Shown here: piece after piece, positions 38,401 to 63,083 of the stretch | Numbering within the stretch: the first letter of the stretch is position 1 | How the letters are laid out: every line of letters begins with the position of its first letter | From: Oligoflexia bacterium | GTDB taxonomy: Bacteria > Bdellovibrionota > UBA1018 > CAIMNF01 | NCBI GenBank assembly: GCA_903831745.1 | Contig: CAIKYX010000260.1 | Location: forward strand, 16,433 to 80,432 | DNA: 64,000 nt | Reading direction: 5' to 3' | Made by a program: the position numbers and the translations under genes | Notes under the pieces: generated by a model | Databases searched by the model: none | What the model was told of the DNA's origin: nothing | Seen by the model: only the letters and a program-made list of their open reading frames with translations

Positions 38401-41400
38401 CGGCAGGTGCAACGGCTACCGCTAGCGCTCACGCAGCTGGTTTTACTACCATTATTTCTGCAGCCACCTTGACTGCGAATCAGAGCTATACGATCACTTC
38501 ACCTTCGGCCACAAACAAATATGGCTTTGCTTACTTGTCTGCAGGTGGCGCAGTCACTTCGTCCAACAGCTATTGGCTTGCCAACAATGGCGTAACCGAC
38601 ACACTCCCCGGAATTCCATACACCCAACTCACCCACGCCGTCGGCGCTACTTATAGTGGAACTTACTCAAGCGCTGCGGCCACCATTACCGGATTATCCA
38701 GCACCACAGGACTTGCTCCGGGCCAATTGATTTCCGGCACCAATATTCCTGCCAACACGACCATTACGTCCGTTGGCTCTAACTGGGTTGCTTTGAGTGC
38801 AACTCCTACCGGTTCCGGCACAAGCTTCTCAAACGACATTTACAACTACGCAGGCTGGGATACCGACTTTACCACCTCGAACTACTGGTACGAACTCGGA
38901 AGCTGCGCAAGCTCACAACTTTCACCTACCGGTGGGTGTCCAACTGCAAGTTACCCATTCCCTACTTTGATTTATCCTTCGAGTGCCACCAGCGCTCGTA
39001 TTTACATCAGCTCGGCTCCGACCATTACCACTGGCAACATGAACAGCTATACGGTTTCAGGTACTTGTAACGTAAACGGCAATACCGTTACAGTATATGT
39101 CGATGGCTCTAGCGTGGGCACTGCAGTCTGCGCAACGGGTTCAAGTCCACAATTCTCGATCACGTTTAATGCAAGCACCCTGACCGACGGCACCCACACT
39201 ATTATGGCTTCAATGCCAGATGGCTCTTCCAACATCATGACGAACTCGGTTGCGGTAATCGACAACACGGTCATTCCACCGGCTCCAACCGCCATTGCGT
39301 TGAACACCCCTGCTTCTTCGCCAGGATCGAATGCTTCGCCGGTACTGACTGTTACCCTTTCTGCATTTACAGCGGGCAACACCGTCTCTCTCTATACCAA
39401 TAGTTCTTGTGCTGCTCCATCCTACAAAGGAACTGCAACTGCTTCGGGCACCAGCGTAAACGTAACCGTAAGCCCGGCACTTGCCGCAATCGGCCCGCAA
39501 ACGTATTACGCACAAACCGCCAATGCCTATGGCAACATTTCGGCCTGCTCGAGCGCCCATGTTACCTATGATTACGAAACTCCGATCATGCAATTTACAG
39601 ACGTAAACGGCAATATTCGCACTGGTTTTTCAGTGATCGCATCAATATGTTCAACCAGCCCTACGGGTTGCGCAAGCAACGTTGATTACGGTGTACCTGT
39701 CGGGTCGCCTATTTATATTTCACTCTTAAACGCTGGTGCACTTTACAACAGCTCCGGTGCAACTTCTGTAACAGTCACTTACACCGGAATCAGTGCAGTA
39801 ACCGGAACCCAACTCACAAACGGTAGCTACACAGCCACCATTCCAAACGGTGCTTCGAGTGTAGTGGTCGATTCGCATAACTTTGTCATCGGCCATAGCG
39901 CCACAGTTACTGCTGACACTTATTTTGTAATCACACTGAGTGCGCCAAACAATGGCGCTGTACTCGCAACTGCCCCACAGGCTCAGGTAAACATTGTCGA
40001 TCCGAACTATGTTACCCCGACCTATGGCGGTGGCGGCGACGTCATGTTCTCGCATTCGTTCTACTCGACCACCGCTGGGGGATCGACCGCAACACTTTAT
40101 TTGCAGCGACCTTTCAATCAAAGCACGACAGAACCGGTTGATGTAAAATTCTTCGATGGAACAGGCGCTGCTGGAACCGATTATACTGGCACTACCCAGA
40201 CCGTCACCTTTACTTCAGGAACCACCAAACAAGAAATCGCAGTTACTGTTCCGGTCACTACCGGCACTAATGGCGTAAACAAATCATTCTTCGCGCAAAT
40301 TGTTCCTCATGCATTTACCGGAACGATTACTGCCGGCAGCACCTCAGTCACCAGCGTTTCGAGCACCACAGGACTTGCTGTCGGACAAACGATCACCGGA
40401 GTGGGCATCATCAACGGCACTACGATTTCAGCCATCAGCGGAAGCACCCTGACCTTAAGCGCCGCTGCAAACTACAGTGTCACCAGCCAAAACTTAACAG
40501 TCGGCTCGGCCCGATCGCAGAGTATCGCAAAAATCAGGATTTTAAGTTCAGGCGAAGCCTGCGACTCTGCTGCACCCGGCACCATCACAGCAAACACGAC
40601 CGTGGGAAGCAACATCATTACCGTTTCTAGCGCTTCTGGTTTGGCAATTGGGCAAATTCTCGCAGGTGCAAACATCGCAGGAAATACAGTTATTACTGCC
40701 ATTAGTGGAACCACTTTGACCCTGAACAACGCCGCAACAGGAACAGGAACCGGAGTGACACTGAATACCCATGTGTTTGGTGGCTTCTTTACCGGAAGCG
40801 CAACCAATGGTGGCTCATCAAGCAATCCTTACCTGGTGTGCAATACCGGACAGTGGACGAACATGGGTTCCAGCACGTCTTATTGTAATGGCTCAACCTG
40901 TAATACAGCTGGTAACAATTTCATGCTGGCTGCGGACTTTACTCCATCTGCTGTTCCGGCCGCAATTTCTACGATGTCTGCAAACCTCGACGGAAATGAA
41001 CATATCATTTACGACTACGCGAGCGTCGCTAGCGTTCCGCTTTTTGCCACCGTCAATCCATCAGGAGGCGGCACTACCCTTCAAAAAATCAACATGCTTT
41101 ACGCTTCAGTCACCGGCACTCTTGCCAATTCTGCAGCCTTCATCGGAGTAAACGGTGGAGCATCGAACTATCAAGCCATCCTCACCGATGACTTTGTTTC
41201 TGGATACGTAAAAACGACTACCGGAAACGCAGATGCACTCCTCGTCGCACAGATGCTCGGCACCACCAATCAAACGAGTGCGACCATTCAATATGGCATG
41301 GTCTCGGGTCTCGTCAGCGCTACCACTGCCTTGTACGTCGGTGGACTCGTCGGTGAGTACAAATGGGGTAACAGCGCAAACGGTGCATTGTCGACACTCG

Positions 41401-47728: not shown

Positions 47729-48613
47729 CTAGGTGCCCACATCAATTCGATCGCAAGGCACCACAAAATTAGGCTTATCCACCGTAATCAGTACCGGCCC
47801 TAAAGTCGAAGTGGCACCGGCCTTATTCGGTTGATAGATGGTAATCGAGCGAACGCCCCAAGGAACCGTGGTAAATGAAAATGCTCCTTGAGCGGCAGGG
47901 GCCACGGGATGCAGTACCTGCTTCAGCACCCCTAAACCATCGGGATAGTTCAATTCGACCTCAGCAGTACCCACAAACGGCGCGCCTCCCTGACAAATAA
48001 ATCCACTGACCGTCGAGGTCACCATGTTTACCGGAAGCACTTCCCAAATGTCCTGAGAGAATGGATTTCCGGGAGTGGTTCCAAACACTTTGTCGGCACC
48101 GTAACTTCCGACATACCCATCATATGCGCCGTAGCCCATGTACCCAGAATACGGAGCAAGATACACAAATGGAGTACCCCAAGCATCATTCACAAAACTA
48201 GTACTGGGCCCAGTGCCTTCTACGTAGGGGCCGTTCCACCCCAGACCAAAACGAGAAGTCGCACTGACCGCATAGGCAGGTAAGCTCGGATTGGTAACCA
48301 AATCTGCGATGTGGCCAAATGCACCGATGTCGCCTACATAGCCAAAGCTACTGCGACTGCCCGAAACTTTAACATCCGGATTACCGGTCATGCCTTCACG
48401 AATTTTAGTCAGGATTGCTACCGTTTCATCAAAACGAGCGGAATCTACCTGACTCGAAATCATCTCGATCGAAATGACCGAAAGGATGACGAGCAGGCCG
48501 ATACTCATCAAGAGTTCGACCATGGTAAACCCATCTTTTTTTAAGCAAATTTTACGGCACAAATAAGAGATCATCAGCCGCTCCCGCTCCGCCACAGATT
48601 CGATCTGGCCCAC
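47729..48613 (-). CDS. Pseudopilin / type IV minor pilin with a prepilin-type N-terminal methylation motif and a large C-terminal domain; paralog of the N-terminal half of 60683..62218
   Basis: The motif is …KKDG|FTMVELLMSIGLLVILSVI (G-F-T-x-x-E, with E at +5). It shares the blocks SFGYVGDIG, FGLGWNGPYV, DAWGTPFVY and FGVRS…AGATSTLGPV with the 511-aa LamG-pseudopilin. Confidence 0.6.
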   Translation of the reverse strand: MGQIESVAERERLMISYLCRKICLKKDGFTMVELLMSIGLLVILSVISIEMISSQVDSARFDETVAILTKIREGMTGNPDVKVSGSRSSFGYVGDIGAFGHIADLVTNPSLPAYAVSATSRFGLGWNGPYVEGTGPSTSFVNDAWGTPFVYLAPYSGYMGYGAYDGYVGSYGADKVFGTTPGNPFSQDIWEVLPVNMVTSTVSGFICQGGAPFVGTAEVELNYPDGLGVLKQVLHPVAPAAQGAFSFTTVPWGVRSITIYQPNKAGATSTLGPVLITVDKPNFVVPCDRIDVGT

Positions 48614-49046
48614 AGCTCGTTAAATTTCCGCTGGGTTGATCGAATAGAAAAAGAGTTCCCCACCCATCTGTTTTAAAATCATTCGGCAGATTTTGAAAGA
48701 CCTGATCGACGTAAGGTCCACACCACCCTTGCAGCGTAAGATAAGTGTCTACATCGGCGGGATTATTGTCCACATCGCAGGCGGGCTCACCGAGATTGGT
48801 AAGTAAATGGTTAAAGTCAGCCGGATAGGTACCCACCGTTTTTCCGCCATGACTTAATTTATAGGCCTGAAGTGCAGTTCGAAGTGCCAAGGCCTTTTCG
48901 GTGGTTTCGCGACTTTGCGCGGTTCCGATCATAGGCCCTAACATCACCATGGCTCCTGCAATTAAGAGTGCAAAGAGCAAAAGAGCCAGCATCACGCCGA
49001 TCAGTCCAAAACCCTTTTGCTGGTTAGAATGAGATAACGATATCAT
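48552..49046 (-). CDS. Pseudopilin-like protein with a prepilin-type N-terminus lacking Glu+5
   Basis: 164 aa with …QQKG|FGLIGVMLALLLFALLIAGAMV (Gly at +5, as in GspK/PilX-type minor pilins). It overlaps the neighbouring genes by a few nt, which suggests an operon. Confidence 0.5.
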   Translation of the reverse strand: MISLSHSNQQKGFGLIGVMLALLLFALLIAGAMVMLGPMIGTAQSRETTEKALALRTALQAYKLSHGGKTVGTYPADFNHLLTNLGEPACDVDNNPADVDTYLTLQGWCGPYVDQVFQNLPNDFKTDGWGTLFLFDQPSGNLTSCGPDRICGGAGAADDLLFVP

Positions 49047-49494
49047 CGCCTGTTCCTAAGACTTGATCAGGCCCACGACTCGTAATCGTTCGGCCTACCT
49101 TATCGTACCAAATCGGCTGACCCCATGCATCAGTACTATAATTAGGATCTGTATCCGACACATACGGACCACGCCATCCCTGCTTTAAAAATGGATCGTA
49201 AGCAACCGAACAGGTTCCAGAACCTGGCATCGCAACTAAATCAGAAAGTAGATCTGGAACGCCCAAGCAATCGATCAAGTAACCTGGTTTTGAGAGTTGT
49301 CCTGCCGAAACGAGCCTCGCATCGCCGACAATGGCGGCTTTAAAAGCGATTAATTTTTCGGTAGTGACTGCAATTTTTGCGTCGGTTCCGAAATTAACGA
49401 ATTGGGATATTCCCACTGCTGCAAGCACCGCTAGAAGCGCAAGAACCATGAGGGTTTCGATCAGGGTAAAACCGTTTTTATGTTTTAAATCCAA
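49024..49494 (-). CDS. GspG-like pseudopilin / type IV minor pilin
   Basis: 156 aa with a canonical prepilin N-terminus (MDLKHKNG|FTLIETLMVLALLAVLAAVGISQF). Confidence 0.65.
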   Translation of the reverse strand: MDLKHKNGFTLIETLMVLALLAVLAAVGISQFVNFGTDAKIAVTTEKLIAFKAAIVGDARLVSAGQLSKPGYLIDCLGVPDLLSDLVAMPGSGTCSVAYDPFLKQGWRGPYVSDTDPNYSTDAWGQPIWYDKVGRTITSRGPDQVLGTGDDIVISF

Positions 49495-49497: not shown

Positions 49498-50154
49498 CTA
49501 ATACTGGTACTCGGTACCGCCACCGTCTGCAGGACTGACACCGTCGTTATTACCTGTGTTCGCCCAAAGGTTTCCGGTTACTGAATCATAACACCAGCCG
49601 CCCTCGTTAATGGTAGCCGCGCCCGCTGTAGTACCGGCAAATGCAACACCCGCAGCACAATTCTTACCCGCAGTTCGAGTCGCTTCGCAAAGCGCTGATG
49701 AGGTCATGGTCGATACGCAATCGACGATGTCATTCGCATTCAGGGCTGCACCCGGAGCTGCAGCAATCACAGCTGTACCAGGAGCAGATAGAGTTTGATT
49801 CACTGACCATGGATTAGGTGGAATACTGCTTGCGATGAAGATTCGGTCAGCCGCATTAGCGATTTGAGTAGTGGTACACAGTGGCAAAGCACCCGCCGTG
49901 ATATCATTGAGAGCGAAACTGTCTGCAGGAGGAAATGCTCCGGTGACGTTACACCTGACCGCAACCTGAGAGGCTTGCACCGCTATCGCGTTTCGAATGA
50001 TAGCCAAGTTACCTTTAACGGCGGCTTCCTTCGCTTCTTTCGAGAAGTTCACAAATTGTGTTACACCGATGGCTGCGAGAATTCCGATCAGCAAAACCAC
50101 CATCAACATCTCGATCAGCGTAAAACCTTGATTATTTTTCTTCGATCTTTTCAC
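49498..50154 (-). CDS. Type IV pilin (major-pilin-like; Cys-rich C-terminal domain)
   Basis: 218 aa with …NNQG|FTLIEMLMVVLLIGILAAIGVTQFVNFSKEAKEAAVKGNLAIIRNAIA. It is a paralog of 57252..57821, sharing IPPNPWS and a C-terminal GWCYD motif. Confidence 0.7.
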   Translation of the reverse strand: MKRSKKNNQGFTLIEMLMVVLLIGILAAIGVTQFVNFSKEAKEAAVKGNLAIIRNAIAVQASQVAVRCNVTGAFPPADSFALNDITAGALPLCTTTQIANAADRIFIASSIPPNPWSVNQTLSAPGTAVIAAAPGAALNANDIVDCVSTMTSSALCEATRTAGKNCAAGVAFAGTTAGAATINEGGWCYDSVTGNLWANTGNNDGVSPADGGGTEYQY

Positions 50155-50308: not shown

Positions 50309-51535
50309 CTAGTGGTGCAAAGCCGAGTTCATTTTCCAAATCGGAAGCATGACCGCTAAGGCAATGACTGCCACCATGGCAAAAATAATCGCCAAAAGCA
50401 CGGGTTCAAGCAACTTTGCCAGGTTATTCAAACTATAATCGATTTGCACCTGATAATACCGACCGATTCTTTTCAGCACGGGCTGAAGCCTACCCGACTC
50501 CTCACCGATCGAAAGCAGGCTTTTAAACGTTCCCGGAAAAAACGGAGCCGACCCCAGGGCAATACTCAGACTCCCCCCCTTGGCAATCTCACTCTGACAA
50601 TGAGTCAGGGCCTGTTTAAAAAGCTCGTTCTTTTGAGAATCCTTCAAGGTGTCCAACGAGTCCATGAGTGGAATACCGCTATCCAGTAGCAACTCGAGAA
50701 TGACGCAGAGGTTATTCAATTCAAGATAGAGAAACACCCGCCCGAAAATCGGTAGCTTGAGCTTCAGGCGATCAATCTGAAACTTGCCTTTCGCCGTGGC
50801 CGCATATTTCTCGTACCCGAAGCGAATCGCCATGGCACCGGCTACGATCAAATACCAGTAGTGAATGAAGAAGTCTGAGCTGCTGACCACAAATTGGGTA
50901 ATTGGCGGAAGATCAGAGCCCAATGAATTCAAGAAGCCTTTTAATTTAGGAATGACAAAATAGACCACCACCCCAATCACCACCACCAGAACCACGACTA
51001 CAATTTTCGGATAAAAAAGCGCCGATTTTACTTTGGCGTCATTTTCGGCCTGCTGCTCGATCATGGTGCTGATGCGATTCAAAGTAGACTCGAGCTTACC
51101 GGTCACCTCGCCGGTCTTGATCAACCCGACCGCAACCGGATCAAATATGGCTGGATGTTTTGCGAAGGCCTCATGCAAAGTGCCACCTTCGGTAATATCC
51201 GTGGTGATACTGACCAATGCATGCCTCAGAGTTTTATTCTGGGCTTCTTCCGAAAGCAGGTTCAGCATTTGAAGCAGCGGAATACCCACCGAGATTCCGG
51301 TTTCGAGCTGGCTCATGAACACCAGTTTTTCTTCGAGCGTAATTTTAGTCGTAAACTTTTCGAATGCGTCCGAAAACATCCGGAACATGATCTTCAGATT
51401 AAAACGGTCGACACCGAGAACGATCAGGTTTTGCTTAACCAATGCCTTTCGAGCGAGAAATAAGTTGTCCGCTTCGATCGATCCTTCGACAACTTCACCT
51501 TTTCGGTTCCGAGCCCGATAATAATATTTCGGCAT
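50309..51535 (-). CDS. Type II secretion / type IV pilus inner-membrane platform protein (GspF/PilC family)
   Basis: 408 aa with two T2SSF repeats (…LSIGEESGRLQPVLKRIGRYY…) and 3 TM segments. Confidence 0.9.
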   Translation of the reverse strand: MPKYYYRARNRKGEVVEGSIEADNLFLARKALVKQNLIVLGVDRFNLKIMFRMFSDAFEKFTTKITLEEKLVFMSQLETGISVGIPLLQMLNLLSEEAQNKTLRHALVSITTDITEGGTLHEAFAKHPAIFDPVAVGLIKTGEVTGKLESTLNRISTMIEQQAENDAKVKSALFYPKIVVVVLVVVIGVVVYFVIPKLKGFLNSLGSDLPPITQFVVSSSDFFIHYWYLIVAGAMAIRFGYEKYAATAKGKFQIDRLKLKLPIFGRVFLYLELNNLCVILELLLDSGIPLMDSLDTLKDSQKNELFKQALTHCQSEIAKGGSLSIALGSAPFFPGTFKSLLSIGEESGRLQPVLKRIGRYYQVQIDYSLNNLAKLLEPVLLAIIFAMVAVIALAVMLPIWKMNSALHH

Positions 51536-51549: not shown

Positions 51550-52896
51550 CTATGGTTCTGAAGCCTTTTCAATTTCCTGGGACATCTTTTTAGCCCCTTC
51601 GACTTTTGAAGTCGCCGTTCCATCCATCGCGGCAGAAATTTCTTTTGCGGTAGCAATCTTTCGGTCTTCTGGCGACAGGGCTTCATCGATTGTCGGCGTC
51701 AGAAAAATTACCAGCTCATTATTCGAATCATTCACCGAGCTCGAGCGAAACAGCGCGCCGATCAAAGGTATATCCATCAGAATTGGCACACCAGAATGGT
51801 TTTTTGAGTGCGATTGTTTGATCAAGCCGGCAATGACCGCAGTCTGCTTGTTTCCCACGATTACCGCAGTGTTTGCCGAATTCTTAAGAATTCCAGGAAT
51901 TCCGTCCACCGCACCACTGGCATCCGGAGTCGAGTCATTTACATCGACAATCATTTTGATCTGACCTTCGCCCACGAGAGTCGGCAAAATGGTCAAAGAC
52001 AATCCCGCTTCGACTGACGAGAGACCTCCGGTCAGAATTCCAGGAGTAGTCGCATCTTTCGTACCTTGCACCGGAACATTACTCAAGGTCTTGACCGTAT
52101 AAGTCGTACCGCTTTCAACTTTCGCCTGCCGATTATTCAAGGTGGTGACCTTCGGACGAGATAGGACTTTTGCATCACCTTTTGATTCCGCCGCAGTCAG
52201 TTTAATATCCAAGGCACGACTGCTCACATTACCGATCACACCTTTAAAACTGATGTTTGGAGTGGTCGGCCCGGGAGTCGTGATTCCATCGCCGATTCCG
52301 CTGACCGAAATGCCGATATCCTGCAAGAATTGATGCGTGGTTTCGACAATCAACGCTTCGATCATGATTTGCTTGGGTGGCGTATCAAACAGCGCCACCA
52401 CATTTTTAACCTTTTCGAGGGTGCGTGCTGACCCAACAAAAATCAGTCTATTCTGATGTTCATCGACCAGTAATTTTCCATCCGATCCGATGACCGTGGT
52501 TAATTTAGGCAGTAACTCTGAAGCAGAAGCATAGTGCAGAATAATGTCTTTGGGTTCGCCATTCACTCCCATCGATGCCGAAGCTCCCTTACGCTTGGTC
52601 ACAATCAGCTGATTGCCCGACACCATGTATTCGATCTGTTGATCGGAAGATATTTTTTCGAGCAATTGACGAGCAGTCACACCGGATTGGGCGATTGACA
52701 CATTGATCTTTGGATCATCATCCATGACCAGGGTCATACCCGATTTCAGGGCGATCATTTCGAGCACTCCTTTAAGCGGAGAGTCGACTACGTTCATCGA
52801 CAATTGCGAATCGAGCTCTTCCGAGTGGCAAATCGCCGTTAGAAAGAACCCACAAAAAAGCGTAATCGTTAAAAAGAGCTTGATTGAATTTTTCAT
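51550..52896 (-). CDS. Secretin (GspD/PilQ/MshL family), short form
   Basis: 448 aa with a signal peptide, a secretin N-domain and a C-terminal secretin domain (…GVPILMDIPLIGALF…ELVIFLTPTI). Confidence 0.85.
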   Translation of the reverse strand: MKNSIKLFLTITLFCGFFLTAICHSEELDSQLSMNVVDSPLKGVLEMIALKSGMTLVMDDDPKINVSIAQSGVTARQLLEKISSDQQIEYMVSGNQLIVTKRKGASASMGVNGEPKDIILHYASASELLPKLTTVIGSDGKLLVDEHQNRLIFVGSARTLEKVKNVVALFDTPPKQIMIEALIVETTHQFLQDIGISVSGIGDGITTPGPTTPNISFKGVIGNVSSRALDIKLTAAESKGDAKVLSRPKVTTLNNRQAKVESGTTYTVKTLSNVPVQGTKDATTPGILTGGLSSVEAGLSLTILPTLVGEGQIKMIVDVNDSTPDASGAVDGIPGILKNSANTAVIVGNKQTAVIAGLIKQSHSKNHSGVPILMDIPLIGALFRSSSVNDSNNELVIFLTPTIDEALSPEDRKIATAKEISAAMDGTATSKVEGAKKMSQEIEKASEP

Positions 52897-53318
52897 TCTT
52901 CATCCCCCTCTGCACTATCCTCTTCGTCTCCGCTCTCGACAGATGCCGGGTCGCGAATCGGGGGCAGACTGATTTCAATTTCAGAACTTTGTTTTTTGAG
53001 AATGACGTAATTCTCACCGATGCGTTCGATCATGCGGTCTTCGACAAAATCGCCGACATGAACCGACTTGCCGTTTACAACGGCCATGGGCTGACTTTTG
53101 TCATACATGATGCCACCGAGCTTGAACTTGTCTTTGACTTCGGGAATGGTGGCAAAACCAGGTTCTTTCAGAAACGGATCAACACCCCATGGAAGCTTCG
53201 GGTTGACGAGCAAATAGCCCACATCCATATCGGTAATCAGGTCGAAAGCCGGCCCTTCAGCGAGGGCGACCGATGTACCGAAACAAAAAATGCAGAAAAC
53301 CCATTTGAATTGCTTCAT
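52893..53318 (-). CDS. PilP-like pilot / inner-membrane lipoprotein of the pilus assembly subcomplex (putative)
   Basis: 141 aa with a signal peptide, a beta-sandwich-like segment (AVVNGKSVHVGDFVEDRMIERIGENYVILKK) and an acidic C-terminal tail. It sits immediately upstream of the secretin, as in pilMNOPQ. Confidence 0.45.
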   Translation of the reverse strand: MKQFKWVFCIFCFGTSVALAEGPAFDLITDMDVGYLLVNPKLPWGVDPFLKEPGFATIPEVKDKFKLGGIMYDKSQPMAVVNGKSVHVGDFVEDRMIERIGENYVILKKQSSEIEISLPPIRDPASVESGDEEDSAEGDEE

Positions 53319-53866
53319 GGGTGCCTCGCTACATAGCTATAGAGTTTGATGCTGGCCTTACAGCGCTTCATTTCTTCCGTAATTCGACTGATTTCGATCG
53401 AGTCGACTTCAGTCAATAAGGCCGAGTCCTCGAGCTTTTCGAGAAATTTTCCAATGGCAATAAAAGGGGCCTCTACCTCTACTTTATAGAGCGTCTGGGT
53501 GTAGCCGCTGAAAGTCGATTCACTGTCTGAGGTAATCTTGTTGATAATGAACGCCTCGTTTTTCGAGTTTTCAACCAAGCCGGTGACCACACTCGAAAAA
53601 AGCTCATTCGACTTCAGGTATTTTTCGAGCAAGCGCTGAGACGCCGTGACCGACTGGGATGCCGGAGCGCGGGTCGCGAGCTTCTTGAATTCGAGTTGTT
53701 CCTTGGCCAGAGTGTTTCGAGCAGTGACGACCTCGACCTCGAGCTTTTTCAGCTCGAGACTTTTAGGGCTTGCCCAAAAGTGCTGAAAAAGAAAGAGAAC
53801 TCCTACGATAAAGGCGCTGGTTAAATAACTTTCACGTTTAGAGAGTCGGATTTTTTTGAAAATCAT
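53315..53866 (-). CDS. PilO/GspM-like pilus assembly protein (putative)
   Basis: 183 aa with a single N-terminal TM segment followed by coiled-coil and ferredoxin-like regions. Position within the cluster supports the call. Confidence 0.45.
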   Translation of the reverse strand: MIFKKIRLSKRESYLTSAFIVGVLFLFQHFWASPKSLELKKLEVEVVTARNTLAKEQLEFKKLATRAPASQSVTASQRLLEKYLKSNELFSSVVTGLVENSKNEAFIINKITSDSESTFSGYTQTLYKVEVEAPFIAIGKFLEKLEDSALLTEVDSIEISRITEEMKRCKASIKLYSYVARHP

Positions 53867-54432
53867 CCCCGCCCTCCTGTCGTCGCATCGATCGGAACTG
53901 AAAATTCGAACTTATAACGAGAAGGGCTGATCTTAGCCTCTTTTTCGGAATAGTCGATTCTCACTTGTCCGAAATGATGGGATTGCTCGAGAATGGTCAA
54001 AAACTCGGCCACCAATTCCTGCGAAACCGACTCACCCCTGAGAATGATTCGATCCGAGTCTTTCTCGGTACCGTTCGAAAAGCTGGTCAGCCAAATGCCA
54101 TCCGGAATGAGGATACTCAACTCTTTAAAAAATGCAGACCAATAGGTCTTGCGGTTCAGAACTTTTTGCAGCGAAGTCAGAGTCTCGCTCTTTTGATTCA
54201 AATCCTTGTTTTGTTGCGAAAGGAGCGCAATCTTCTGATGAAGTTCGCTCGCCGTGGCATCGATCTGAGCCAACTCTTTCTTTTGCGAGCGCGAAGACAA
54301 AAATGCCTGAGAACTCATTCCTACTGCATAGACCACGAGCACGGCTGCAAGCGCAAGAGGAAGCATCTCATGCGAAAGCCTGAGTCGGGGGCGCAGATCG
54401 GCGGGAATGAAATTCAGGTGCTTCTGACTCAT
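53863..54432 (-). CDS. PilN-like pilus assembly protein
   Basis: 189 aa with HLNFIPADLRPRLR (compare PilN INLLPWR), then a TM segment and a coiled coil. Confidence 0.5.
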   Translation of the reverse strand: MSQKHLNFIPADLRPRLRLSHEMLPLALAAVLVVYAVGMSSQAFLSSRSQKKELAQIDATASELHQKIALLSQQNKDLNQKSETLTSLQKVLNRKTYWSAFFKELSILIPDGIWLTSFSNGTEKDSDRIILRGESVSQELVAEFLTILEQSHHFGQVRIDYSEKEAKISPSRYKFEFSVPIDATTGGRG

Positions 54433-55241
54433 AATGGCTTTTTAATAGCCTCCTCTTGATAAATTCTCAAAACGATACGGCGGTTTTTAACCAGATTCGA
54501 AAGAATGGCCTCACCATTGACCGAACGATTCGGAAGCAACGGACGAGAATCTCCGTAACCGATTACTTTCATCATTCCCTTGGTAAACCCCTGCTCTTCA
54601 AACACATGAACGAGCGACGCAGCCCGGGCTGCCGAGAGTTCCCAGTTCGAGCCGTAGATCCGGCGCTGATGCACCACAGGCGAATCATCCGTGTGCCCTT
54701 CGACTTCAATCACGGTTTTTTCGGGAGCAGTCTTCAAGAGCTCGACAATTTCCTTCAATACAGGCTGCGATTTCTCGTCGAGCTTGGCAGAACCGATCAT
54801 GAACAATTGATCAGAACTTAAAGTGACTCGAAGCGCACTCGAACCCTCTTCTCTTTCTAGTTTTTCGATTCCCTGAATCTTTTTTTCTTCAAACTCTTTT
54901 TCGAGCCCGGCCAGGCGATCGACTTGCACCGCTGCAACAGGCAAAGAAGCTGGTGCACGCACCGCTACTGGCGCTGGAGCTTGAACCTTGGCCACGATAT
55001 TTGCCTCGGTAGGACCTTGCGAAATATTAGAAGTCTTGGAATAAGTAGTCATGTCGATGGACGAGGTTTCGATCGACAGCAAAAAGGCTGCGAGCGTCGC
55101 CAGCACAAAAGTACTCAGATCAGCCGATTTGCGAGATTTTTTCGGCGAAGCCTTTAGTTTGGGCTGAGCCTTTGCTGATTTGAGCAAAGTCTTTTTCACG
55201 CGCTTTTGGCTGATAAAATTAATTCTTCGATCGGGTTTCAT
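54429..55241 (-). CDS. OmpA/MotB C-terminal-domain peptidoglycan-binding protein, membrane-anchored
   Basis: 270 aa with a TM segment (LSTFVLATLAAFLLSI) and an OmpA_C-like domain (VEGHTDDSP…NWELSAARAASLV). It is embedded between pilN and pilM. Confidence 0.7.
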   Translation of the reverse strand: MKPDRRINFISQKRVKKTLLKSAKAQPKLKASPKKSRKSADLSTFVLATLAAFLLSIETSSIDMTTYSKTSNISQGPTEANIVAKVQAPAPVAVRAPASLPVAAVQVDRLAGLEKEFEEKKIQGIEKLEREEGSSALRVTLSSDQLFMIGSAKLDEKSQPVLKEIVELLKTAPEKTVIEVEGHTDDSPVVHQRRIYGSNWELSAARAASLVHVFEEQGFTKGMMKVIGYGDSRPLLPNRSVNGEAILSNLVKNRRIVLRIYQEEAIKKPL

Positions 55242-56314
55242 GCGGCCTTCTTTCCGTCAGGAACACTGACGAGGGCCAGCCCTACTGCGGTGCCCATGTA
55301 TGGGGCCAATAGTGCGATTTCTTCATGAGACTGATCGAGCGATGAGCTATAGATATCGATATTGCGAAACGGATTTACGACCTGGGTCGGAACCTTGAAA
55401 AACATCTCATGAACCTTGTCGATGCCTTTTACCTGACTTGCCCCACCGAGAAGCAGAATTCGATCCACTTTTCCGAAGCTTTCGGGACATTCTTTGTAAA
55501 ATTCAACCAGAGCCTTCAACCCCTTCAGGATCTCCATGAAAGTTTCATCCAGTACTTCACCGACGGTGCCTCGATTTTCTTCTGGGGCTAAAAAGTTATA
55601 GCCGAGTTTTACGCGTTCGGCTTCTTCGTAAGACATATTGCATTTTTCTCGCAGACGCTGATTCACGCTGCCGAAAGCAGTTTCTTCCGTTCGAGTCAGG
55701 GTCAGTACGCCATCTGTGATTAATCCCGAATTAATATGTGATTCGCCGAGATCAAGAACAATGACCACTTCCTTCGGGTCAATATAACCATTAAAATCGA
55801 GCATGGCAGTAATCGCCATCATTTCTGATTCGATCGAACTGGGTTTAAGCCCGGACTCTTCGAGCACTTTCATCTGAGCAACAACGAGATCTCGTTTTAC
55901 ACAGAAAGCCTTGATCAGGGTAACATCCGGATCGTCGTTTTTATCTGCGGTTACCCAGAAATCACAGCATTGATCGTCCATCGACATGCGCGCGAGCTCG
56001 CCGACTTCCTGCGGAACCACTTGCAGCAGTTCCTTTTCAGGCATCTTCGGCAAATTAAAACTGAACGTCATCACATCGCTGTCGCGAACCGTGGTTGCTG
56101 CCGACGACGACGACAATTGCTGTACTTCGATTGAAGCCTTCAGTACCTCATCCCGATTACTGCGGGCCGGAAAATCTTCCGAAGTCTGCAACAGGTCCTG
56201 AAAAAAATGTCCGGCGAGGTGAACCTTGCCGTCTTTGGCACGCGTGAGTTTGACCCCTTTGATCGTTCGGGCTCCAAGATCGACACCTAATACCTGCTTC
56301 TTGAAAAAATTCAT
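55238..56314 (-). CDS. pilM: PilM-like actin-fold pilus assembly ATPase-like protein
   Basis: 358 aa starting VLGVDLGARTIKGVKL…; PilM/FtsA fold with …ILLLGGASQVKGI…. Confidence 0.8.
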   Translation of the reverse strand: MNFFKKQVLGVDLGARTIKGVKLTRAKDGKVHLAGHFFQDLLQTSEDFPARSNRDEVLKASIEVQQLSSSSAATTVRDSDVMTFSFNLPKMPEKELLQVVPQEVGELARMSMDDQCCDFWVTADKNDDPDVTLIKAFCVKRDLVVAQMKVLEESGLKPSSIESEMMAITAMLDFNGYIDPKEVVIVLDLGESHINSGLITDGVLTLTRTEETAFGSVNQRLREKCNMSYEEAERVKLGYNFLAPEENRGTVGEVLDETFMEILKGLKALVEFYKECPESFGKVDRILLLGGASQVKGIDKVHEMFFKVPTQVVNPFRNIDIYSSSLDQSHEEIALLAPYMGTAVGLALVSVPDGKKAA

Positions 56315-57162
56315 CGCTGACTCCTTAGAAATGAAAACAATCCTTTGGATTTTAAATTGAGGGCTTCGTTCGCCACTTTTTCATGAATGAGGCGAATGCG
56401 TTTTTCTTCGGCTGCCTGAATGACCCGTTCACTGAGCTGATTGATCCGACGAGGAATTCCGTTACTCAGGGTGTAAATGATTTTCATCACTGAAGCTTCG
56501 AAGCGAATGAAGTTACCGTTTCCTACCTGTTCAATGCGGCTTTTAATATATCGCTCGGTCTCGAGTCGATCGAGCCCCCTGAGCGTGGCATGACATCCGA
56601 TTCGTTGTTTCAACTGTCGTAGCTCAGGACGCTGTAGAGTTGCATCGAGCTCTGGCTGTCCGATCAGCACAATTTGAAGAAGTTTTTGAGTACGGGTCTC
56701 GAGATTGGTCAATAAGCGGATCATTTCGAGTGCTTCGACGCTCAGCGATTGCGCTTCATCGATCATCAGAATCGAGTGTTTGCCGGAATCTACGTTGGTG
56801 AGTAAAAAACGGTTCAGGTGATCGACGTAAGCCTTGCCAGTTTGAAATTCAACTGCAGGCTTGGGCACTTCGAACTCTTCGCATATCGCTTGCAATAACT
56901 CGATCTCGGTAAATTTAGGATAAAGAATCAGCGCCGTATTCGCCTGATTTTCGAACGAGGCGAGCAACATTCGCGCAAGCAAGGTCTTGCCGGTTCCTAC
57001 TTCGCCGGTCAACACACTAAAACCTTTGCCCTGCCTGAGCGCCTGACTCAGATCATTCAACGCACGATTGTGCTGATGAGAGGCGTAATAAAACTCCGGG
57101 TCAGGAGTTTCACCGAAAGGATTTACTTCTAAATTATAAAATTTGCTGTAATAGCTTTTCAT
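56311..57162 (-). CDS. ExeA/GspA/MshM-like AAA ATPase, short form without a C-terminal peptidoglycan-binding domain
   Basis: 283 aa: …VNPFGETPDPEFYYASHQHNRALNDL…LTGEVGTGKTLLARML…ILMIDEAQSLS…; AAA_22-like. Confidence 0.75.
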   Translation of the reverse strand: MKSYYSKFYNLEVNPFGETPDPEFYYASHQHNRALNDLSQALRQGKGFSVLTGEVGTGKTLLARMLLASFENQANTALILYPKFTEIELLQAICEEFEVPKPAVEFQTGKAYVDHLNRFLLTNVDSGKHSILMIDEAQSLSVEALEMIRLLTNLETRTQKLLQIVLIGQPELDATLQRPELRQLKQRIGCHATLRGLDRLETERYIKSRIEQVGNGNFIRFEASVMKIIYTLSNGIPRRINQLSERVIQAAEEKRIRLIHEKVANEALNLKSKGLFSFLRSQR

Positions 57163-57251: not shown

Positions 57252-57821
57252 TTAGAACGTATGTTCGTTAGTGGTTTTATTGAAAGCACTATTCGCCCAG
57301 ATCTGGCCGGCATAGGCGTCACCCGCCAAAGCGTCATAACACCAACCATACTCGCCAGCCGACCCCCACGCTGATCCCGCACAATCCGTAGCGCTGTTCG
57401 GCCCAAGACCTGCGCAACTTCCGCCCCCATTACAAGCAGTGACCGTCGAAGGATTGCCGGTACTGTCGCTCCAGGGATTCGGCGGAATCGTTCCGTTTGC
57501 AACAAACGTTCGGTCCGAGGCCAAAAGCACTTGCGAGGTCGTGCAAGGAGCTGATCCAAAAGTAATATCATTATTATTTAAATTCGCGAGACTGGGCACA
57601 CTTGCGTCCGAAACTCCACAACGGAGCCGCATCTGCGCGTTCTGCATGCCGATCGCCCGCCTCAAAATGGCCAGATCTGCTTTGACTGCAGCATCCTTGG
57701 AGTCGGCACCAAAGTTTACGAATTCCGTTACCCCGATTGCCGCTAATACCCCAAGCAGCAAAATGACCATCAAGACTTCAATCAAACTGAAACCTGTGAT
57801 TTTATGACGACTCCCGCCCAT
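57252..57821 (-). CDS. Type IV pilin, second major-pilin-like paralog
   Basis: 189 aa with …KITG|FSLIEVLMVILLLGVLAAIGVTEFVNF…, IPPNPWS and a C-terminal GWCYD motif. Confidence 0.7.
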   Translation of the reverse strand: MGGSRHKITGFSLIEVLMVILLLGVLAAIGVTEFVNFGADSKDAAVKADLAILRRAIGMQNAQMRLRCGVSDASVPSLANLNNNDITFGSAPCTTSQVLLASDRTFVANGTIPPNPWSDSTGNPSTVTACNGGGSCAGLGPNSATDCAGSAWGSAGEYGWCYDALAGDAYAGQIWANSAFNKTTNEHTF

Positions 57822-57952: not shown

Positions 57953-59674
57953 ATGTCGAAGCCCTTGGAATCTAAAGGAACCCACCTCGCCTCCGGCCGA
58001 AAATTCGGCGAGGTGTTGCTCGAAATGAACTTGCTCACGCAAGAAGAAATCGATGCGGCAGTATTGCGTGGATCCGAAAAGAGAATGCGCTTGGGCGATT
58101 TACTTCTCAGTGAAGGAAAAATTTCGAGTGAAAATCTCGCGCGAGCCCTAGCCAGTCAGTACGATCTCGAATACCTCGACCTTTCTTCGATGATCTTCAA
58201 CAAGGAAGCTTCAAAAATCATTCCAGAAAAAATTGCCCGAACTTTTCGCATCCTCCCGATCGAATCCAAAGACGGTTTTGTTACTCTTTGTGCCGACGAC
58301 CCGATTCAACTGGTCAAACTCGATAACATCAAAAAAAGCATCGAGGGCACGATCATCCTGAAAGTCGGAACCAAGGAACAAATCGAAGCCGCATTGAACA
58401 AAGTTTATGCCTATGACAATTCGGTAGACCGGATTGTCAAACACCTGGCCAAAAAGCAGGAACTGAAAAAACCTACAGTGACTGAGAGCCTGCTGAACAG
58501 CGACAATCCGAAGGACGCCAATCCGTCGATCGAAGCGCTCGTCAATAAATTCATCGAACGCGCCATCATCGATCGTGCGAGCGACATTCATATCGATCCG
58601 GCCGAAGAAAAAGTGCGGGTTCGAGTGCGAATTGATGGCCTCCTGCATGAATTGCACACCTACCCCGTTCCGTTGCACGTGGCGGTAGTTTCGCGACTCA
58701 AAGTCCTTTCGAACCTCGATATTGCCGAAAAAAGGCATCCTCAGGATGGACACTTCAATTATACAAAAGGTTCCCATGCCGTCGACATCCGTATTTCGAC
58801 GCTGCCTACGGTACACGGCGAAAAACTGGTCCTTCGTTTGCTCGACAAGAAGAAAATGCGCGGAAACCTGCTTCAGATCGGAATGAGCCCAGAGATCGAA
58901 GCCTCGGTTCAAGCATTACTCGAACGTCCTCATGGCGTCATCTTTCTTACCGGTCCTACCGGAAGTGGTAAAACCACCTCTCTTTATTCGATGTTAAATC
59001 AGATCAACGGCATCGAACGAAATGTCATTACGGTTGAAGATCCGGTCGAATACAAATTTGATGTCATCAACCAGATTCAGGTAAACGAAAAGGCCGGATT
59101 GAATTTCGCTGGCATCTTAAGAAACATCCTTCGTCAGGATCCGGATGTGATCATGATCGGTGAGGTCCGCGATCAAGAAACTGCAGACATCGCCATTCGC
59201 GCGGCCCTGACCGGCCACTTGGTGTTAAGCACGCTTCACACCAATGATTCCGTCAGCACGCCGAATCGCCTGATCGATATGGGCGTCGAACCTTTTTTGA
59301 TTTCATCTGCCCTGGTGGCTGTCATTGCCCAGAGGTTGGTGCGAGTGCTCTGCACCCATTGCCGCGAAAAAGTTGCCATTACCGAAGAAGAACTTCGCTT
59401 GCTCGGCACCAGCGCCCTCAGCGTCGATAGCGTCATTTACGGTCCCGTCGGTTGCCAGCACTGCTTTCATTCAGGGTATCAACATCGAATCGCCCTTTTC
59501 GAATACATGCCGATCGACGAGCACATTCGAAGTGCGATCATTCGTCGTGATTCGCCCGATCAATTGACCAAATATCTGAACGACAATGGATTCATCAGCA
59601 TGCGCCAGGACGGAATTTATAAGATCGCCGCCGGCATCACTTCAGTCGAAGAAGTCCTGAAAGCCACGCTCTAA
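57953..59674 (+). CDS. GspE/PilB/MshE-family assembly ATPase with an N-terminal T2SSE_N/MshEN-like domain
   Basis: 573 aa with Walker A GPTGSGKTT, the Asp/His boxes and a tetracysteine motif (CTHC…CQHC). The N-terminal repeats are KFGEVLLEMNLLTQEEIDAAV and RLGDLLLSEGKISSENLARALASQ. Confidence 0.9.
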   Translation: MSKPLESKGTHLASGRKFGEVLLEMNLLTQEEIDAAVLRGSEKRMRLGDLLLSEGKISSENLARALASQYDLEYLDLSSMIFNKEASKIIPEKIARTFRILPIESKDGFVTLCADDPIQLVKLDNIKKSIEGTIILKVGTKEQIEAALNKVYAYDNSVDRIVKHLAKKQELKKPTVTESLLNSDNPKDANPSIEALVNKFIERAIIDRASDIHIDPAEEKVRVRVRIDGLLHELHTYPVPLHVAVVSRLKVLSNLDIAEKRHPQDGHFNYTKGSHAVDIRISTLPTVHGEKLVLRLLDKKKMRGNLLQIGMSPEIEASVQALLERPHGVIFLTGPTGSGKTTSLYSMLNQINGIERNVITVEDPVEYKFDVINQIQVNEKAGLNFAGILRNILRQDPDVIMIGEVRDQETADIAIRAALTGHLVLSTLHTNDSVSTPNRLIDMGVEPFLISSALVAVIAQRLVRVLCTHCREKVAITEEELRLLGTSALSVDSVIYGPVGCQHCFHSGYQHRIALFEYMPIDEHIRSAIIRRDSPDQLTKYLNDNGFISMRQDGIYKIAAGITSVEEVLKATL

Positions 59675-59818: not shown

Positions 59819-60586
59819 TTACTCTTCAGTAGTAGAATAAGTTTTTAATTTTGAGATTCGGGCTGAGAGCTTTTCTTTGACCAGCGGATCAATTCGGGCG
59901 CTGGCTTCATAAATTTCATACTCTTGTGCAGCTTCCGCTGGTTCATTGATATTTTCGAGTGCGACCGCCAGGTTAAAATGACCTTCAGTCAGCTTGGGGT
60001 TCAAAATCAGGCTTTTTTGCAGGTAACTCACGGCTTCGTCATACTGATGAAGCGCAAGACTTAACGATCCCAGATTATTGTAGATCGTCGCCAGCACCGT
60101 TTGAGGCGTGTTTTCTAGATGCAGGGCCTCGATGAATATTTTTTTAGCGACCGGGTATTCCTTCAGTTTAAAATGAACCATTCCAAGATTATTCAAAATT
60201 TCTGCCGAATGTGGATAGTTTTTAGCGAGAGACTCGAGGCTCTCCAAAGCACCGTTGTAATCCTGAAGCTCGAACGAATGAATCGCACTTCGACTCACTC
60301 GAAGATCAGCGGGTTCAGCCACTTTTTCAGCTCCAATACCAGGAACCAAGGGCTTCTCTGCTTTGACTGCGATCTGAACCGCCCGAAGCTTGAGTTGAAC
60401 CACACGAACTCCCAAATAGGCTGAAGCCACGAAAAACAGGCCCATCAGCGCAAGTCGAACGCGCGAGATCTTTTTCTTACCGTCAAAAATCACCGGAGGA
60501 GGCGGTGGAACCACCCGTAAATCGGGCCGCCCGTTCGCGACTTCCTCGGTCTTTTCTTGAAATAACTGTTTTAGCACTCGACTCAT
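59819..60586 (-). CDS. TPR-repeat protein, membrane-anchored (MshN/PilF-like candidate)
   Basis: 255 aa with a Pro-rich N-terminus, one TM segment (LALMGLFFVASAYLGVRVV) and at least 4 TPR motifs. Confidence 0.6.
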   Translation of the reverse strand: MSRVLKQLFQEKTEEVANGRPDLRVVPPPPPVIFDGKKKISRVRLALMGLFFVASAYLGVRVVQLKLRAVQIAVKAEKPLVPGIGAEKVAEPADLRVSRSAIHSFELQDYNGALESLESLAKNYPHSAEILNNLGMVHFKLKEYPVAKKIFIEALHLENTPQTVLATIYNNLGSLSLALHQYDEAVSYLQKSLILNPKLTEGHFNLAVALENINEPAEAAQEYEIYEASARIDPLVKEKLSARISKLKTYSTTEE

Positions 60587-60682
60587 ATCTGTCTCCCCTT
60601 CATTTCGGCGAAAGCGTCAAAAATCTTGAATGTTTTTTGACGCTCTAGCCAGCGGGCGTCCCTGCTGTATATAATTGAATTC

Positions 60683-62218
60683 ATGAATCTGCTTCGCTCT
60701 TCCAAAGGCTTTACTTTGGTCGAACTCGTGATGGTGCTCGGAATGATCAGCATTTTTGCTGTGCTATCCATATCGCTCATCAGCAGCACTACTGATCAGT
60801 CCCGCTTCGAAAAGACGGTCGAACAAATGAAGCAAATCCGCGAAGGCCTGATCGGATCCGTAAATCACGAAAATTCGGGTCACCAACGCTCGTTCGGATA
60901 TTTGGGTGATATCGGCGATTTGCCCTCGACCGCAGATGGTATCAACGGACTGATTAAGAACCTTCGTTATTCTTCGTGGTCGATGGACCCCGCATCGAGA
61001 ATCGGTGTAGGTTGGAACGGGCCTTACCTTCAACATATTTCAGACACCGGCAATAATTTTCTCGTCGACGGCTGGGGAAATCCTTTTATTTATGACAACA
61101 CGATCGACCCTGCCACGATTACGAGTTATGGCGCAGACGGAGCTCCCTTTGGAACCGGATACAACTCCGATATCGTGGTTCAGATTCCCTATTCTACTTC
61201 GACTGGAACACTTCACGGAGTGATCTTGAACAGTGGCGTTGCATGGGATAGCGACGCCCAGATTGTGGTGAACTATCCGTATGAGGGTACTGTCACTCAA
61301 CTTCCGGCGATCACCGTCGCACCGGGCGATGTGGGCGCATTCACTACTCCACAAACCATTCCGTTCGGCGTCAGGTCTGCGATGGTTTACTTACCCACCC
61401 AAGCAGGTGCAACCACCACGCTCGGCCCGGTGATCTTTACGATGGATAAACCGGATACGTTGGTAAAGTTTGATATTGTAAATGCGACCGGAACACCGGC
61501 CCCACTTTGTACCTCGGCCATGCTTGCTGCGAGCTGGACCCCGGAATATGCTTCAATTACCCATTATATTCCGATGGACGATTGCACCGCCGGCATGTCG
61601 CCCGCCTGCGAAGACATGATTACCGGAAATCCAACTGCGCTGACCTTGAATGGCTCGGCCGTGATTGGCGCTGGTAACTTTAGCACGCAGGGTCTGATTT
61701 GCGATGGCACCGCACTTTGCGATGCCCAACTGCAAGCACCGCTCTTGACTCGAAACTTTACCATCGCATTTTGGTACAATCCCAATTCAATCGGTGCAGC
61801 TAACCAATACCGTCCGTTTGGCGGAGGAGAATCGATCGCCGGAAATAACGGAATCGATTTTATCATCAATGACGGAACCGGAGCAAAAGTGATGTTCAGA
61901 AATGCCGGTACCAATTTTGATTTTTCGTGTGGAGCCTCTCCGCCGACCGGAATCTGGGAACACGTGGTCATTACCTCATCGTCCGCACTGGGAACATTCT
62001 GCTACCGGAACGGCGTCTTACGCGGAGCTAATCCGGCCGCAAAAATCACCACCCTCCTTCCGGGAGCCGAAGCCAATTTTGTTTACATCGGCAGCAGTGG
62101 AGACGGAGACCTGGGCGGAAGCTCTTTCGATGGCGCCGTAGATGACTACGCAATCTGGAACGTCATGCTGACCCCTCCGGAAGTAAGAACCGTCTACAAT
62201 TGTCAATCCAGCTTTTGA
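60683..62218 (+). CDS. Pseudopilin fused to a C-terminal LamG/concanavalin-A-like lectin domain (candidate pilus tip adhesin)
   Basis: 511 aa with …SSKG|FTLVELVMVLGMISIFAV (prepilin motif, E at +5). The central region is paralogous to 47729..48613. The C-terminal LamG-like signature reads …GTFCYRNGVL…FDGAVDDYAIWNVMLTPPEV. Confidence 0.65.
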   Translation: MNLLRSSKGFTLVELVMVLGMISIFAVLSISLISSTTDQSRFEKTVEQMKQIREGLIGSVNHENSGHQRSFGYLGDIGDLPSTADGINGLIKNLRYSSWSMDPASRIGVGWNGPYLQHISDTGNNFLVDGWGNPFIYDNTIDPATITSYGADGAPFGTGYNSDIVVQIPYSTSTGTLHGVILNSGVAWDSDAQIVVNYPYEGTVTQLPAITVAPGDVGAFTTPQTIPFGVRSAMVYLPTQAGATTTLGPVIFTMDKPDTLVKFDIVNATGTPAPLCTSAMLAASWTPEYASITHYIPMDDCTAGMSPACEDMITGNPTALTLNGSAVIGAGNFSTQGLICDGTALCDAQLQAPLLTRNFTIAFWYNPNSIGAANQYRPFGGGESIAGNNGIDFIINDGTGAKVMFRNAGTNFDFSCGASPPTGIWEHVVITSSSALGTFCYRNGVLRGANPAAKITTLLPGAEANFVYIGSSGDGDLGGSSFDGAVDDYAIWNVMLTPPEVRTVYNCQSSF

Positions 62219-62342: not shown

Positions 62343-63083
62343 ATGAGTCAAATCGAAGCCGTTCTACTCACCGACATCGGGGTAAAACGAAAACAAAATC
62401 AAGATGCAGGACTGATCCGGACGGACCTCGATTTTTATATCGTCGCGGATGGAATGGGCGGACACCAGGGCGGCGAAATCGCAAGCAAACTCTGTGTCGA
62501 CGAAGTGGCTGCGCACGTCGAAAAAACCAATAAAACTGCCGAAGACAACGTCATTCTTTATCAAGGACTCATGATCGCCAATCAAAAGGTAAATGAAATG
62601 GCGGTCCGAGAACCCCACCTTCATGGCATGGGCACCACGGCCACTGTCCTTAAAATTACCGATAGAACCGCCACGATCTTGCAAGTGGGCGACAGTCGCG
62701 CTTATTTCTTTAATCGGGACGGAATCTGGCAAATCACGCGAGATCATTCGCTCGTGCAGGAAAAATTGCGCGCAGGGCTAATTACCCGGGCCCAACTGAA
62801 AACCGATGACATGAAAAACGTCATCACCAGGTCCGTGGGATACGAGCTTCAAATGAAGGCCGACGCCTTTCAACTCACCCTCGAGGCCGGTGATGGCTTT
62901 CTCCTCTGTTCTGACGGGCTTTCGGGCCCCATCGAAGATGCCCAGTTGTTTGAATTTCTTGAAGAAACCATCACTTCTGGGGTAAGCTTGAAAGACTCCG
63001 CAGCAAAAATGATCGCAGAAGCGAACCGCCGGGGCGGGCTCGACAACGTAACGGTTTTACTCGTGAGAGTGAACGGGTTTTAA
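62343..63083 (+). CDS. PP2C-family Ser/Thr protein phosphatase
   Basis: 246 aa with ADGMGGHQGGEIAS, …GTTATVL…, DSRAYF and LLCSDGL (PPM motifs). Confidence 0.85.
   Translation: MSQIEAVLLTDIGVKRKQNQDAGLIRTDLDFYIVADGMGGHQGGEIASKLCVDEVAAHVEKTNKTAEDNVILYQGLMIANQKVNEMAVREPHLHGMGTTATVLKITDRTATILQVGDSRAYFFNRDGIWQITRDHSLVQEKLRAGLITRAQLKTDDMKNVITRSVGYELQMKADAFQLTLEAGDGFLLCSDGLSGPIEDAQLFEFLEETITSGVSLKDSAAKMIAEANRRGGLDNVTVLLVRVNGF

Follow-up and report, generated by a model that had tools for sequence, protein, structure and literature searches.

Modular pilins, defined by Raynaud et al. in 2021, number more than 1,200 in 264 architectures, and PF13385 and PF13620 are among the 15 most frequent of their added domains (PMC8179133). 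PF13385 serves as an added domain in both diderm and monoderm bacteria (PMC8179133). Streptococcus sanguinis PilC, a minor pilin that consists of a pilin module, an immunoglobulin (Ig)-like domain and a ConA-like lectin, has been shown to bind sialylated glycans as well as heparin-type probes and has been modelled at the pilus tip together with PilA and PilB (2023 PNAS study, PMC9934059). Here we describe a 511-residue protein from an uncultured Bdellovibrio relative, encoded at 60683..62218 on the plus strand of a 64,000-nucleotide stretch of DNA (Oligoflexia bacterium, assembly GCA_903831745.1, contig CAIKYX010000260.1, positions 16,433 to 80,432; hereafter the window). The 90-kb contig occurs in lakes (samples ERZ18668442 and ERZ27313614). 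The protein joins a prepilin signal and a GspG-like pilin head to a beta-sandwich and a LamG domain. The design of a pilin with LamG is already known, and this protein is a further example of it; our literature search found no paper pairing a pseudopilin with LamG. We interpret the protein as a modular minor pilin of the type IV filament machine encoded beside it, and we put the probability of this interpretation at roughly 65%. Like the modular pilins that combine IPR012902 with PF13385 (PMC8179133), it has, beyond its class III signal and its pilin module, a domain that is not specific to pilus biology. It differs from them in that its carrier portion is a specific two-domain unit defining a large family of its own, and in that the same gene cluster also holds a paralog without cargo.

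Domain architecture of the 511-residue protein

The protein begins with a short basic leader, MNLLRSSKG, which places Gly at position -1 and FTLVE at positions +1 to +5, followed by about 21 hydrophobic residues. Its class III signal reads MNLLRSSKG/FTLVELVMVLGMISIFAVLSISLI, where the slash marks the cleavage site between Gly9 and Phe10 (residues 1-9 form the signal peptide), and the signal together with the alpha1 helix is encoded at 60683..60853. TIGR02532 of NCBIfam scores 19.1 bits against a cut-off of 16.3, and Pfam T2SSG scores 31.6 bits against a cut-off of 21. At the other end of the protein, Pfam Laminin_G_3 (PF13385) matches residues 352-501 with an E value of 5.3e-21 (75.8 bits, cut-off 27.6), the match spanning positions 11-150 of the 151 positions of the model. 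Having N_methyl/TIGR02532 together with PF13385, the protein falls under the definition of modular pilins, an N-terminal pilin motif with an added domain from outside pilus biology (PMC8179133). The view taken in the initial annotation, that a prepilin-type pseudopilin has here been joined to a LamG/ConA-like domain, is fully supported. The GspG equivalog model TIGR01710 falls short of its cut-off (44.5 versus 88.85 bits).

A first AlphaFold model, based on 20 family sequences, is confident over residues 1-267, with a predicted local distance difference test score (pLDDT) of 80-94. In this model, alpha1 forms a long helix (residues 12-57) and is followed by a small alpha/beta head and, set apart from it, a beta-sandwich at residues 164-265. 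The head (residues 58-165; 60854..61177) carries the motifs FGYLGDIG, GWNGPY, DGWGNPF and SYGADG, and Foldseek aligns it with the EpsG/GspG crystal structures 3gn9, 4lw9 and 3fu1 at TM-scores of 0.65-0.72 on the target. Likewise, the family profile matches the GspG chains 5wda, 3gn9 and 2kep by sequence. The fold of the head and the motif pattern W-x-G-P-Y and D-x-W-G-x-x-[FY] are shared with GspG, EpsG and PulG, from which the protein differs in having two extra domains. The first of these, the sandwich (residues 166-267; 61178..61483), resembles transthyretin-like and CnaB/CnaB2 folds in Foldseek searches, and PF13620 is found in the corresponding region of relatives; we describe it as transthyretin/CnaB/CarboxypepD_reg-like. 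A linker with Cys276, Cys301 and Cys309 follows (residues 268-314; 61484..61624), with low pLDDT at the start of the second model described below, and leads into the LamG/ConA-like jelly-roll module (residues 315-505; 61625..62197). Thus, the architecture runs from prepilin signal and alpha1 through GspG-like head, transthyretin-like sandwich and Cys-containing linker to LamG. All eight cysteines of the protein lie within residues 276-507 and none in the carrier part, which is consistent with an oxidised, extracytoplasmic module.

Because the LamG part of the first model had a pLDDT below 50, we modelled residues 262-511 again. The LamG region alone returned no homologs at E<=0.001, and a five-sequence LamG profile found 157 relatives; a 125-sequence alignment was used for the second model. 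This model is a jelly-roll sandwich with a pLDDT of 81.4 and a predicted TM-score (pTM) of 0.83, in agreement with the LamG/ConA fold that had been predicted from the sequence. Foldseek matched it at an E value of 4e-12 and returned 538 Protein Data Bank (PDB) matches at E<=0.001, headed by 5ho2 and 5hon_A. The latter is domain 4 of the Geobacillus arabinanase AbnA (E value of 1e-11, TM-score of 0.79 on the target), a carbohydrate-binding domain that was crystallised alone with ligand. Next in rank are receptor-binding fragments of clostridial neurotoxins, matched in their lectin-like halves. Phage structural proteins of the LamG type are matched in large number as well, with LamG proteins in BFVD at an E value of 2e-14. 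By sequence, residues 315-505 match the LamG domain 4qvs_A (E values of 2e-8 with the single sequence and 1.5e-17 with the profile), and pentraxins are also matched. A phage origin was considered and rejected, as PHROGs matches were weak only.

Glycoside hydrolases occur in the ConA-like superfamily and the structure closest to the model belongs to a glycoside hydrolase family 43 (GH43) arabinanase, so that the C-terminal domain could be an enzyme, such as a ConA-like glucanase, carried on the filament in place of a lectin. We regard this as very improbable, because the matched AbnA domain is distinct from the GH43 domain of that protein and because the sequence matches are all of the Laminin_G_3, pentraxin or neurotoxin-binding type, with none to GH16, GH7 or GH12.

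The order of modules in the 511-residue protein is the same as that in S. sanguinis PilC. However, the pilin moiety of PilC is truncated and distorted and its lectin superposes on galectin-7, whereas the protein described here has a complete GspG-like head. PilC also belongs to a monoderm host and a different machine, in contrast to the diderm, MSH-like machine of the window. No sequence relation to PilC could be detected: with either the full protein or the LamG profile as the query, PilC was absent from the PDB sequence matches at E<=1.

Two paralogs flanking a filament gene cluster

A shorter paralog lies at the opposite end of the gene cluster. It aligns with the 511-residue protein over 280 residues at 38% identity (BLASTP E value of 6e-55), well past the N-terminal helix, and scores 307 bits with a hidden Markov model (HMM) of the shared core. 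The initial annotation had placed this gene at 47729..48613 without a LamG domain, and such an open reading frame does exist; the start of the gene, though, is probably the ATG at 48574 and not the GTG at 48613. The ATG is preceded by a GGAG ribosome-binding site 7 nucleotides upstream and gives the leader and cleavage site MISYLCRKICLKKDG/FTMVE in a protein of 281 residues (47729..48574, minus strand), and the GTG would give 294 residues with a 28-residue leader. TIGR02532 scores 18.8 bits with the paralog against the same cut-off of 16.3, and both paralogs have the prepilin N-terminus attributed to them, with Gly at -1, Phe at +1 and Glu at +5. The globular region of about 250 residues that the two were said to share is indeed shared, but it comprises two domains, the GspG-like head and the beta-sandwich, and the sequence of the short paralog ends directly after the sandwich. 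Likewise, the motifs quoted for both proteins are present, although several are only near-identical in the paralog (SFGYVGDIG, DAWGTPF, WGVRS and AGATSTLGPV).

Two smaller pilin genes on the minus strand adjoin the short paralog gene. One encodes a 164-residue GspG-like minor pilin (48552..49046) whose N-terminus, QQKG/FGLIG, has no Glu5 and which matches the core HMM over the head only (68.7 bits). The other encodes a 156-residue GspG-like minor pilin with the N-terminus G/FTLIE (49024..49494; 119 bits). By the core HMM, one GspG-like head is common to the 156-, 164-, 281- and 511-residue pilins, the sandwich is confined to the 281- and 511-residue pilins, and LamG occurs in a single protein of the window.

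The two paralog genes flank one complete type IV filament gene set. On the minus strand, this set begins with a 189-residue pilin, a second major-pilin-like gene by domain scans (57252..57821). An ExeA/MshM-like AAA_22 ATPase (TIGR03015 at 235 bits, below its cut-off) and PilM follow (55238..57162), and then an OmpA-like peptidoglycan-binding protein, PilN, PilO and a weakly matching GspB-like protein (52893..55241; domain scans). Next come a secretin (51550..52896; PF00263 E value of 3e-43), whose closest NCBIfam model is PilQ at 190 bits versus a cut-off of 284, and a GspF/PilC-type platform protein (50309..51535; PF00482 E value of 3e-53). Downstream of the platform gene are the genes for a 218-residue pilin, the 156- and 164-residue pilins and the short paralog. 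The 218-residue pilin is the likely major pilin (49498..50154; N_methyl at 33.1 bits and a partial match to Myxococcus PilA, NF041775). At the other cluster end, an extension ATPase gene on the plus strand (57953..59674; PF00437 E value of 9e-132) is followed by a tetratricopeptide repeat (TPR) protein gene on the minus strand (59819..60586), found by domain scan in an MshN-like position and divergent from the LamG pilin gene on the plus strand. The ATPase has an N-terminal MshEN domain of the type that binds cyclic di-GMP (PF05157 at 36.1 bits versus 23.1; NF053729 at 41.3 bits versus 38). In this N-terminus (57953..58252), motif II for cyclic di-GMP is perfect, RLGDLLLSEGKISSENLARALASQ, and motif I is degenerate.

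With the mannose-sensitive hemagglutinin (MSHA) pilus of Vibrio cholerae, the cluster shares a secretin, PilM/N/O-like proteins and an ATPase of the MshEN type. Its ExeA/MshM-like AAA_22 ATPase and its TPR protein are candidate counterparts of MshM and MshN, assigned by general domain models that are not Msh-specific. The MshL-type secretin model TIGR02519 scores 96.6 bits against a cut-off of 250.2, and the NCBIfam equivalog cut-offs for GspG, GspD, GspE, PilB, PilQ and MshL are all missed in the cluster. Pfam and NCBIfam scans of the cluster recognised no GspC, GspL or GspM, and no GspH, GspI, GspJ or GspK apart from a weak sub-threshold match to GspH. We therefore call the cluster an MSH-like or type IVa pilus (T4aP)-like type IV filament system. 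A canonical type II secretion system was rejected on the same grounds, PilM, PilN and PilO being present instead.

A machine resembling type II secretion in a looser sense deserves separate consideration. The LamG pseudopilin could sit on a short periplasmic pseudopilus and dock or push a glycosylated cargo, for example the giant protein of 5940 residues encoded next to the cluster. The GspG-like heads of all four minor pilins, the GspF-like, GspB-like and ExeA-like components, and the proximity of this giant Big_1/Calx-beta/GLUG protein all speak for such a machine. However, besides the Gsp components that were not recognised and the GspG and GspD cut-offs that were missed, the ATPase has an MshEN domain, two PilA-like pilins are available as major-pilin candidates, and the giant protein is not kept beside related clusters. 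Taken together, these observations make a secretion machine an unlikely explanation.

The giant open reading frame (29424..47246, plus strand) has long internal repeats and is convergent with the pilin operon. Its product has N-terminal Big_1/invasin-like Ig domains, two Calx-beta domains and a GLUG motif, which give it an adhesin-like look. As no homolog occurs beside related clusters, it was rejected as a conserved partner. Within 52893..57162 on the minus strand, the OmpA-like gene lies between those for PilM and PilN and the GspB-like gene lies directly upstream of the secretin gene; the AAA_22, OmpA-like and GspB-like genes resemble a split ExeAB-type secretin-assembly module, an arrangement kept in two related loci (L006 and L007). 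Directly downstream of the LamG pilin gene is a gene for a PP2C-type serine/threonine phosphatase (62343..63083, plus strand), a neighbour that recurs on two short contigs (L001 and L002), and a regulatory link is possible. Upstream of the LamG pilin gene, a promoter-like TAGCCA-18-TATAAT (window 60646..60685) ends 7 nucleotides before the ATG, and the transcript may be leaderless; the promoter and terminator scan as a whole gave a number of sites not above chance expectation. No RNA genes turned up in the window with Rfam or in a tRNA scan. A PrkA, DUF444 and SpoVR operon (23757..28428, minus strand) and an rve-type integrase of an insertion sequence element (2435..3268, minus strand) are seemingly unrelated to the pilus cluster.

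A carrier family with exchangeable modules

A word-indexed search found 18 relatives of the 511-residue protein, mostly in metagenome-assembled genomes (MAGs) of Bdellovibrionota. All are alike over the first approximately 260 residues, and their C-termini carry LamG, Calx-beta with fn3, CarboxypepD_reg, or a domain of about 160 residues without assignment. An exhaustive profile search extended the family to 648 cluster representatives at E<=1e-30. We surveyed lengths in 155 proteins, namely the 150 best representatives together with pilin-LamG proteins from other searches, and found 29 short (240-300 residues), 75 medium (360-440 residues) and 47 long (>440 residues) forms. Among 44 long forms scanned with Pfam, Laminin_G_3 is the commonest added module (17 of 44), followed by CarboxypepD_reg (5), Calx-beta (4), fn3 (4) and beta-helix (2), with RCC1, Kelch and TIG present once each. 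We know of no experimentally studied member of this carrier family.

The added modules are exchanged. In most LamG members the domain is at the C-terminus, as in the window, and in four others (P0008, P0020, P0080 and P0174) it lies between alpha1 and the head, which is a second, independent fusion topology in the family. Moreover, the LamG domain of the window has its closest counterpart in P0009, which is not a pilin (39% identity), and shares only 25% identity with the LamG domain of the nearest carrier relative, P0001, indicating module exchange.

A genome scan with a three-sequence alignment yielded 13 loci, none from the species of the window. They place the family in MAGs of Bdellovibrionales (Bdellovibrionota), Acidobacteriota, Planctomycetota and Verrucomicrobiota, and the filament machine recurs in the loci of Bdellovibrionales. 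The trio of 156-residue pilin, Glu5-less pilin and short paralog is kept in L004/L005, L006 and L007, and the Glu5-less 164-residue pilin is conserved in L004, L006, L007 and L013. In L013, the 156-residue pilin adjoins GspF and the Glu5-less pilin adjoins a frameshifted family member, apparently a long pilin of the Calx/fn3 type. In L004, from a Bdellovibrionaceae MAG, a long pilin of 847 residues with Calx-beta and fn3 adjoins the secretin, and the short paralog has 291 residues. To the suggestion in the initial annotation that the two paralogs could be alternative tips, or a tip and a priming pseudopilin, these comparative data add that conservation is on the side of the short paralog, the core member, whereas the cargo-carrying long copy varies. 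In a neighbour-joining tree of the carrier portion, calculated without support values and thus only suggestive, the short copy of the window groups with those of L006 and L007 and the long copy groups with P0001.

It is also conceivable that the prepilin signal merely anchors or exports the protein, which would then be a tethered binding protein outside any filament, comparable to the archaeal 'bindosome' sugar-binding proteins with class III signals. Several paralog arrays, and also the closest relative that has a LamG domain, do lie outside machine clusters, and to our knowledge very many pilin-like proteins of Planctomycetota and Verrucomicrobiota have no assigned filament. However, the full GspG-like head, the assembly-type motifs and Glu5 are kept across the 648 representatives, and in Bdellovibrionales the family genes are syntenic with the machine, so we consider a tethered protein quite improbable.

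Paralog arrays are a further feature of the family. One Bdellovibrionota MAG (GCA_041391385.1; L018, 3111..11281) has three tandem medium paralogs of 431, 416 and 426 residues and a family member of 696 residues with thrombospondin type 1 repeats; a gene for a PMT-family protein O-mannosyltransferase among them hints at pilin glycosylation. In Acidobacteriota and Planctomycetota MAGs (L009-L012), each locus has four tandem family paralogs of about 386-438 residues, some of which adjoin an MshE-like ATPase and GspF. The C-terminal domain of about 150 residues that is common to these paralogs has no Pfam match.

Proposed role as a modular minor pilin

As a modular minor pilin, the 511-residue protein would be cut after Gly9 by a prepilin peptidase encoded elsewhere and would be inserted into the filament by its hydrophobic alpha1 and its GspG-like head. 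The beta-sandwich would serve as a spacer, and the disulfide-rich LamG jelly roll would be displayed outside the cell as a binding module, the likeliest ligand being a glycan or another surface ligand. Glycan binding by this module is plausible. We expect the protein in low copy number, at the tip of the filament or close to it and alongside the 156-residue and the Glu5-less 164-residue pilins. The tip placement is suggested by how bulky the cargo is and by earlier publications, and the role of pilus-tip adhesin put forward in the initial annotation is plausible in that it fits the modular-pilin precedent (PMC8179133, PMC9934059). Since the short paralog has the same carrier as the long protein, it probably fills the same structural slot without cargo. 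Filaments could then be built either with or without the lectin-like module.

Several observations weigh against this interpretation. Pfam N_methyl, which the initial annotation had named as a check alongside Laminin_G_3, gives 19.8 bits with the 511-residue protein, slightly below its cut-off of 21.2. No initiation pilins of the GspI/J/K or PilV/W/X type were recognised in the cluster, and no prepilin peptidase (Peptidase_A24) gene was found among the open reading frames of the window that were scanned. The LamG pilin gene has no evident Shine-Dalgarno sequence. The gene for P0001, the nearest relative with a LamG domain, lies apart from pilus genes. Ligand binding is not universal among Laminin_G_3 domains. 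Finally, both paralogs keep Glu5, so that neither looks like the topmost subunit. The absence of Glu5 as a mark of that subunit is a rule established for GspK-type pilins. The 164-residue pilin is the sole pilin of the cluster without Glu5 and, if the usual rule holds, would be the likelier candidate for the topmost position.

Other filaments offer comparisons for a binding function at the tip. In Vibrio cholerae, MshQ is a non-pilin and the proposed MSHA tip adhesin, and it has been modelled as docking onto the MshD/O/P complex by beta-strand complementation (PMC12918778). The MSHA pilus is proposed to have a large accessory protein at its tip, whereas in the window it is a pilin that carries the binding module. 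The Kil (Tad) pilus of Myxococcus xanthus has interchangeable minor-pilin 'Tips' with variable domains, for which an adaptation to targets has been proposed (PMC12075869). It likewise combines a predator lineage with minor pilins that expose variable domains, and its link to the window is by analogy only: the Kil system is of the Tad/Flp type, involves different proteins and is backed by genetic evidence.

A more far-reaching proposal, which we offer tentatively and hold to be rather doubtful in its entirety, is that uncultured Bdellovibrionota have an as yet undescribed MSH-like pilus in which the carrier serves as a dedicated cargo-pilin platform. The short and long paralogs would be rivals for a single position in the initiation complex, beside the Glu5-less pilin, and the cell could switch between a blank tip and a lectin-armed one in the recognition of prey or surfaces. 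Swapping of cargo, including the placement of LamG at two positions, would tune the range of targets.

The protein brings no new principle to the biology of type IV filaments; what it offers is a candidate in which to study how the tip of an uncharacterised MSH-like filament is composed and which ligands it recognises. Modular pilins show how simple filaments acquire new binding functions, and few have been studied, mostly those of pathogens. What is gained here is, first, a two-domain carrier that is well defined as a family, has hundreds of cluster representatives across several environmental phyla and clearly exchanges its added modules, and second, a single cluster in which copies with and without cargo occur as a natural pair. 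A third gain would be the possible tie to surface or prey recognition in Bdellovibrio relatives. The more interesting level is that of the family, with its exchangeable cargo on a two-domain carrier, LamG at two positions and a paired copy without cargo.

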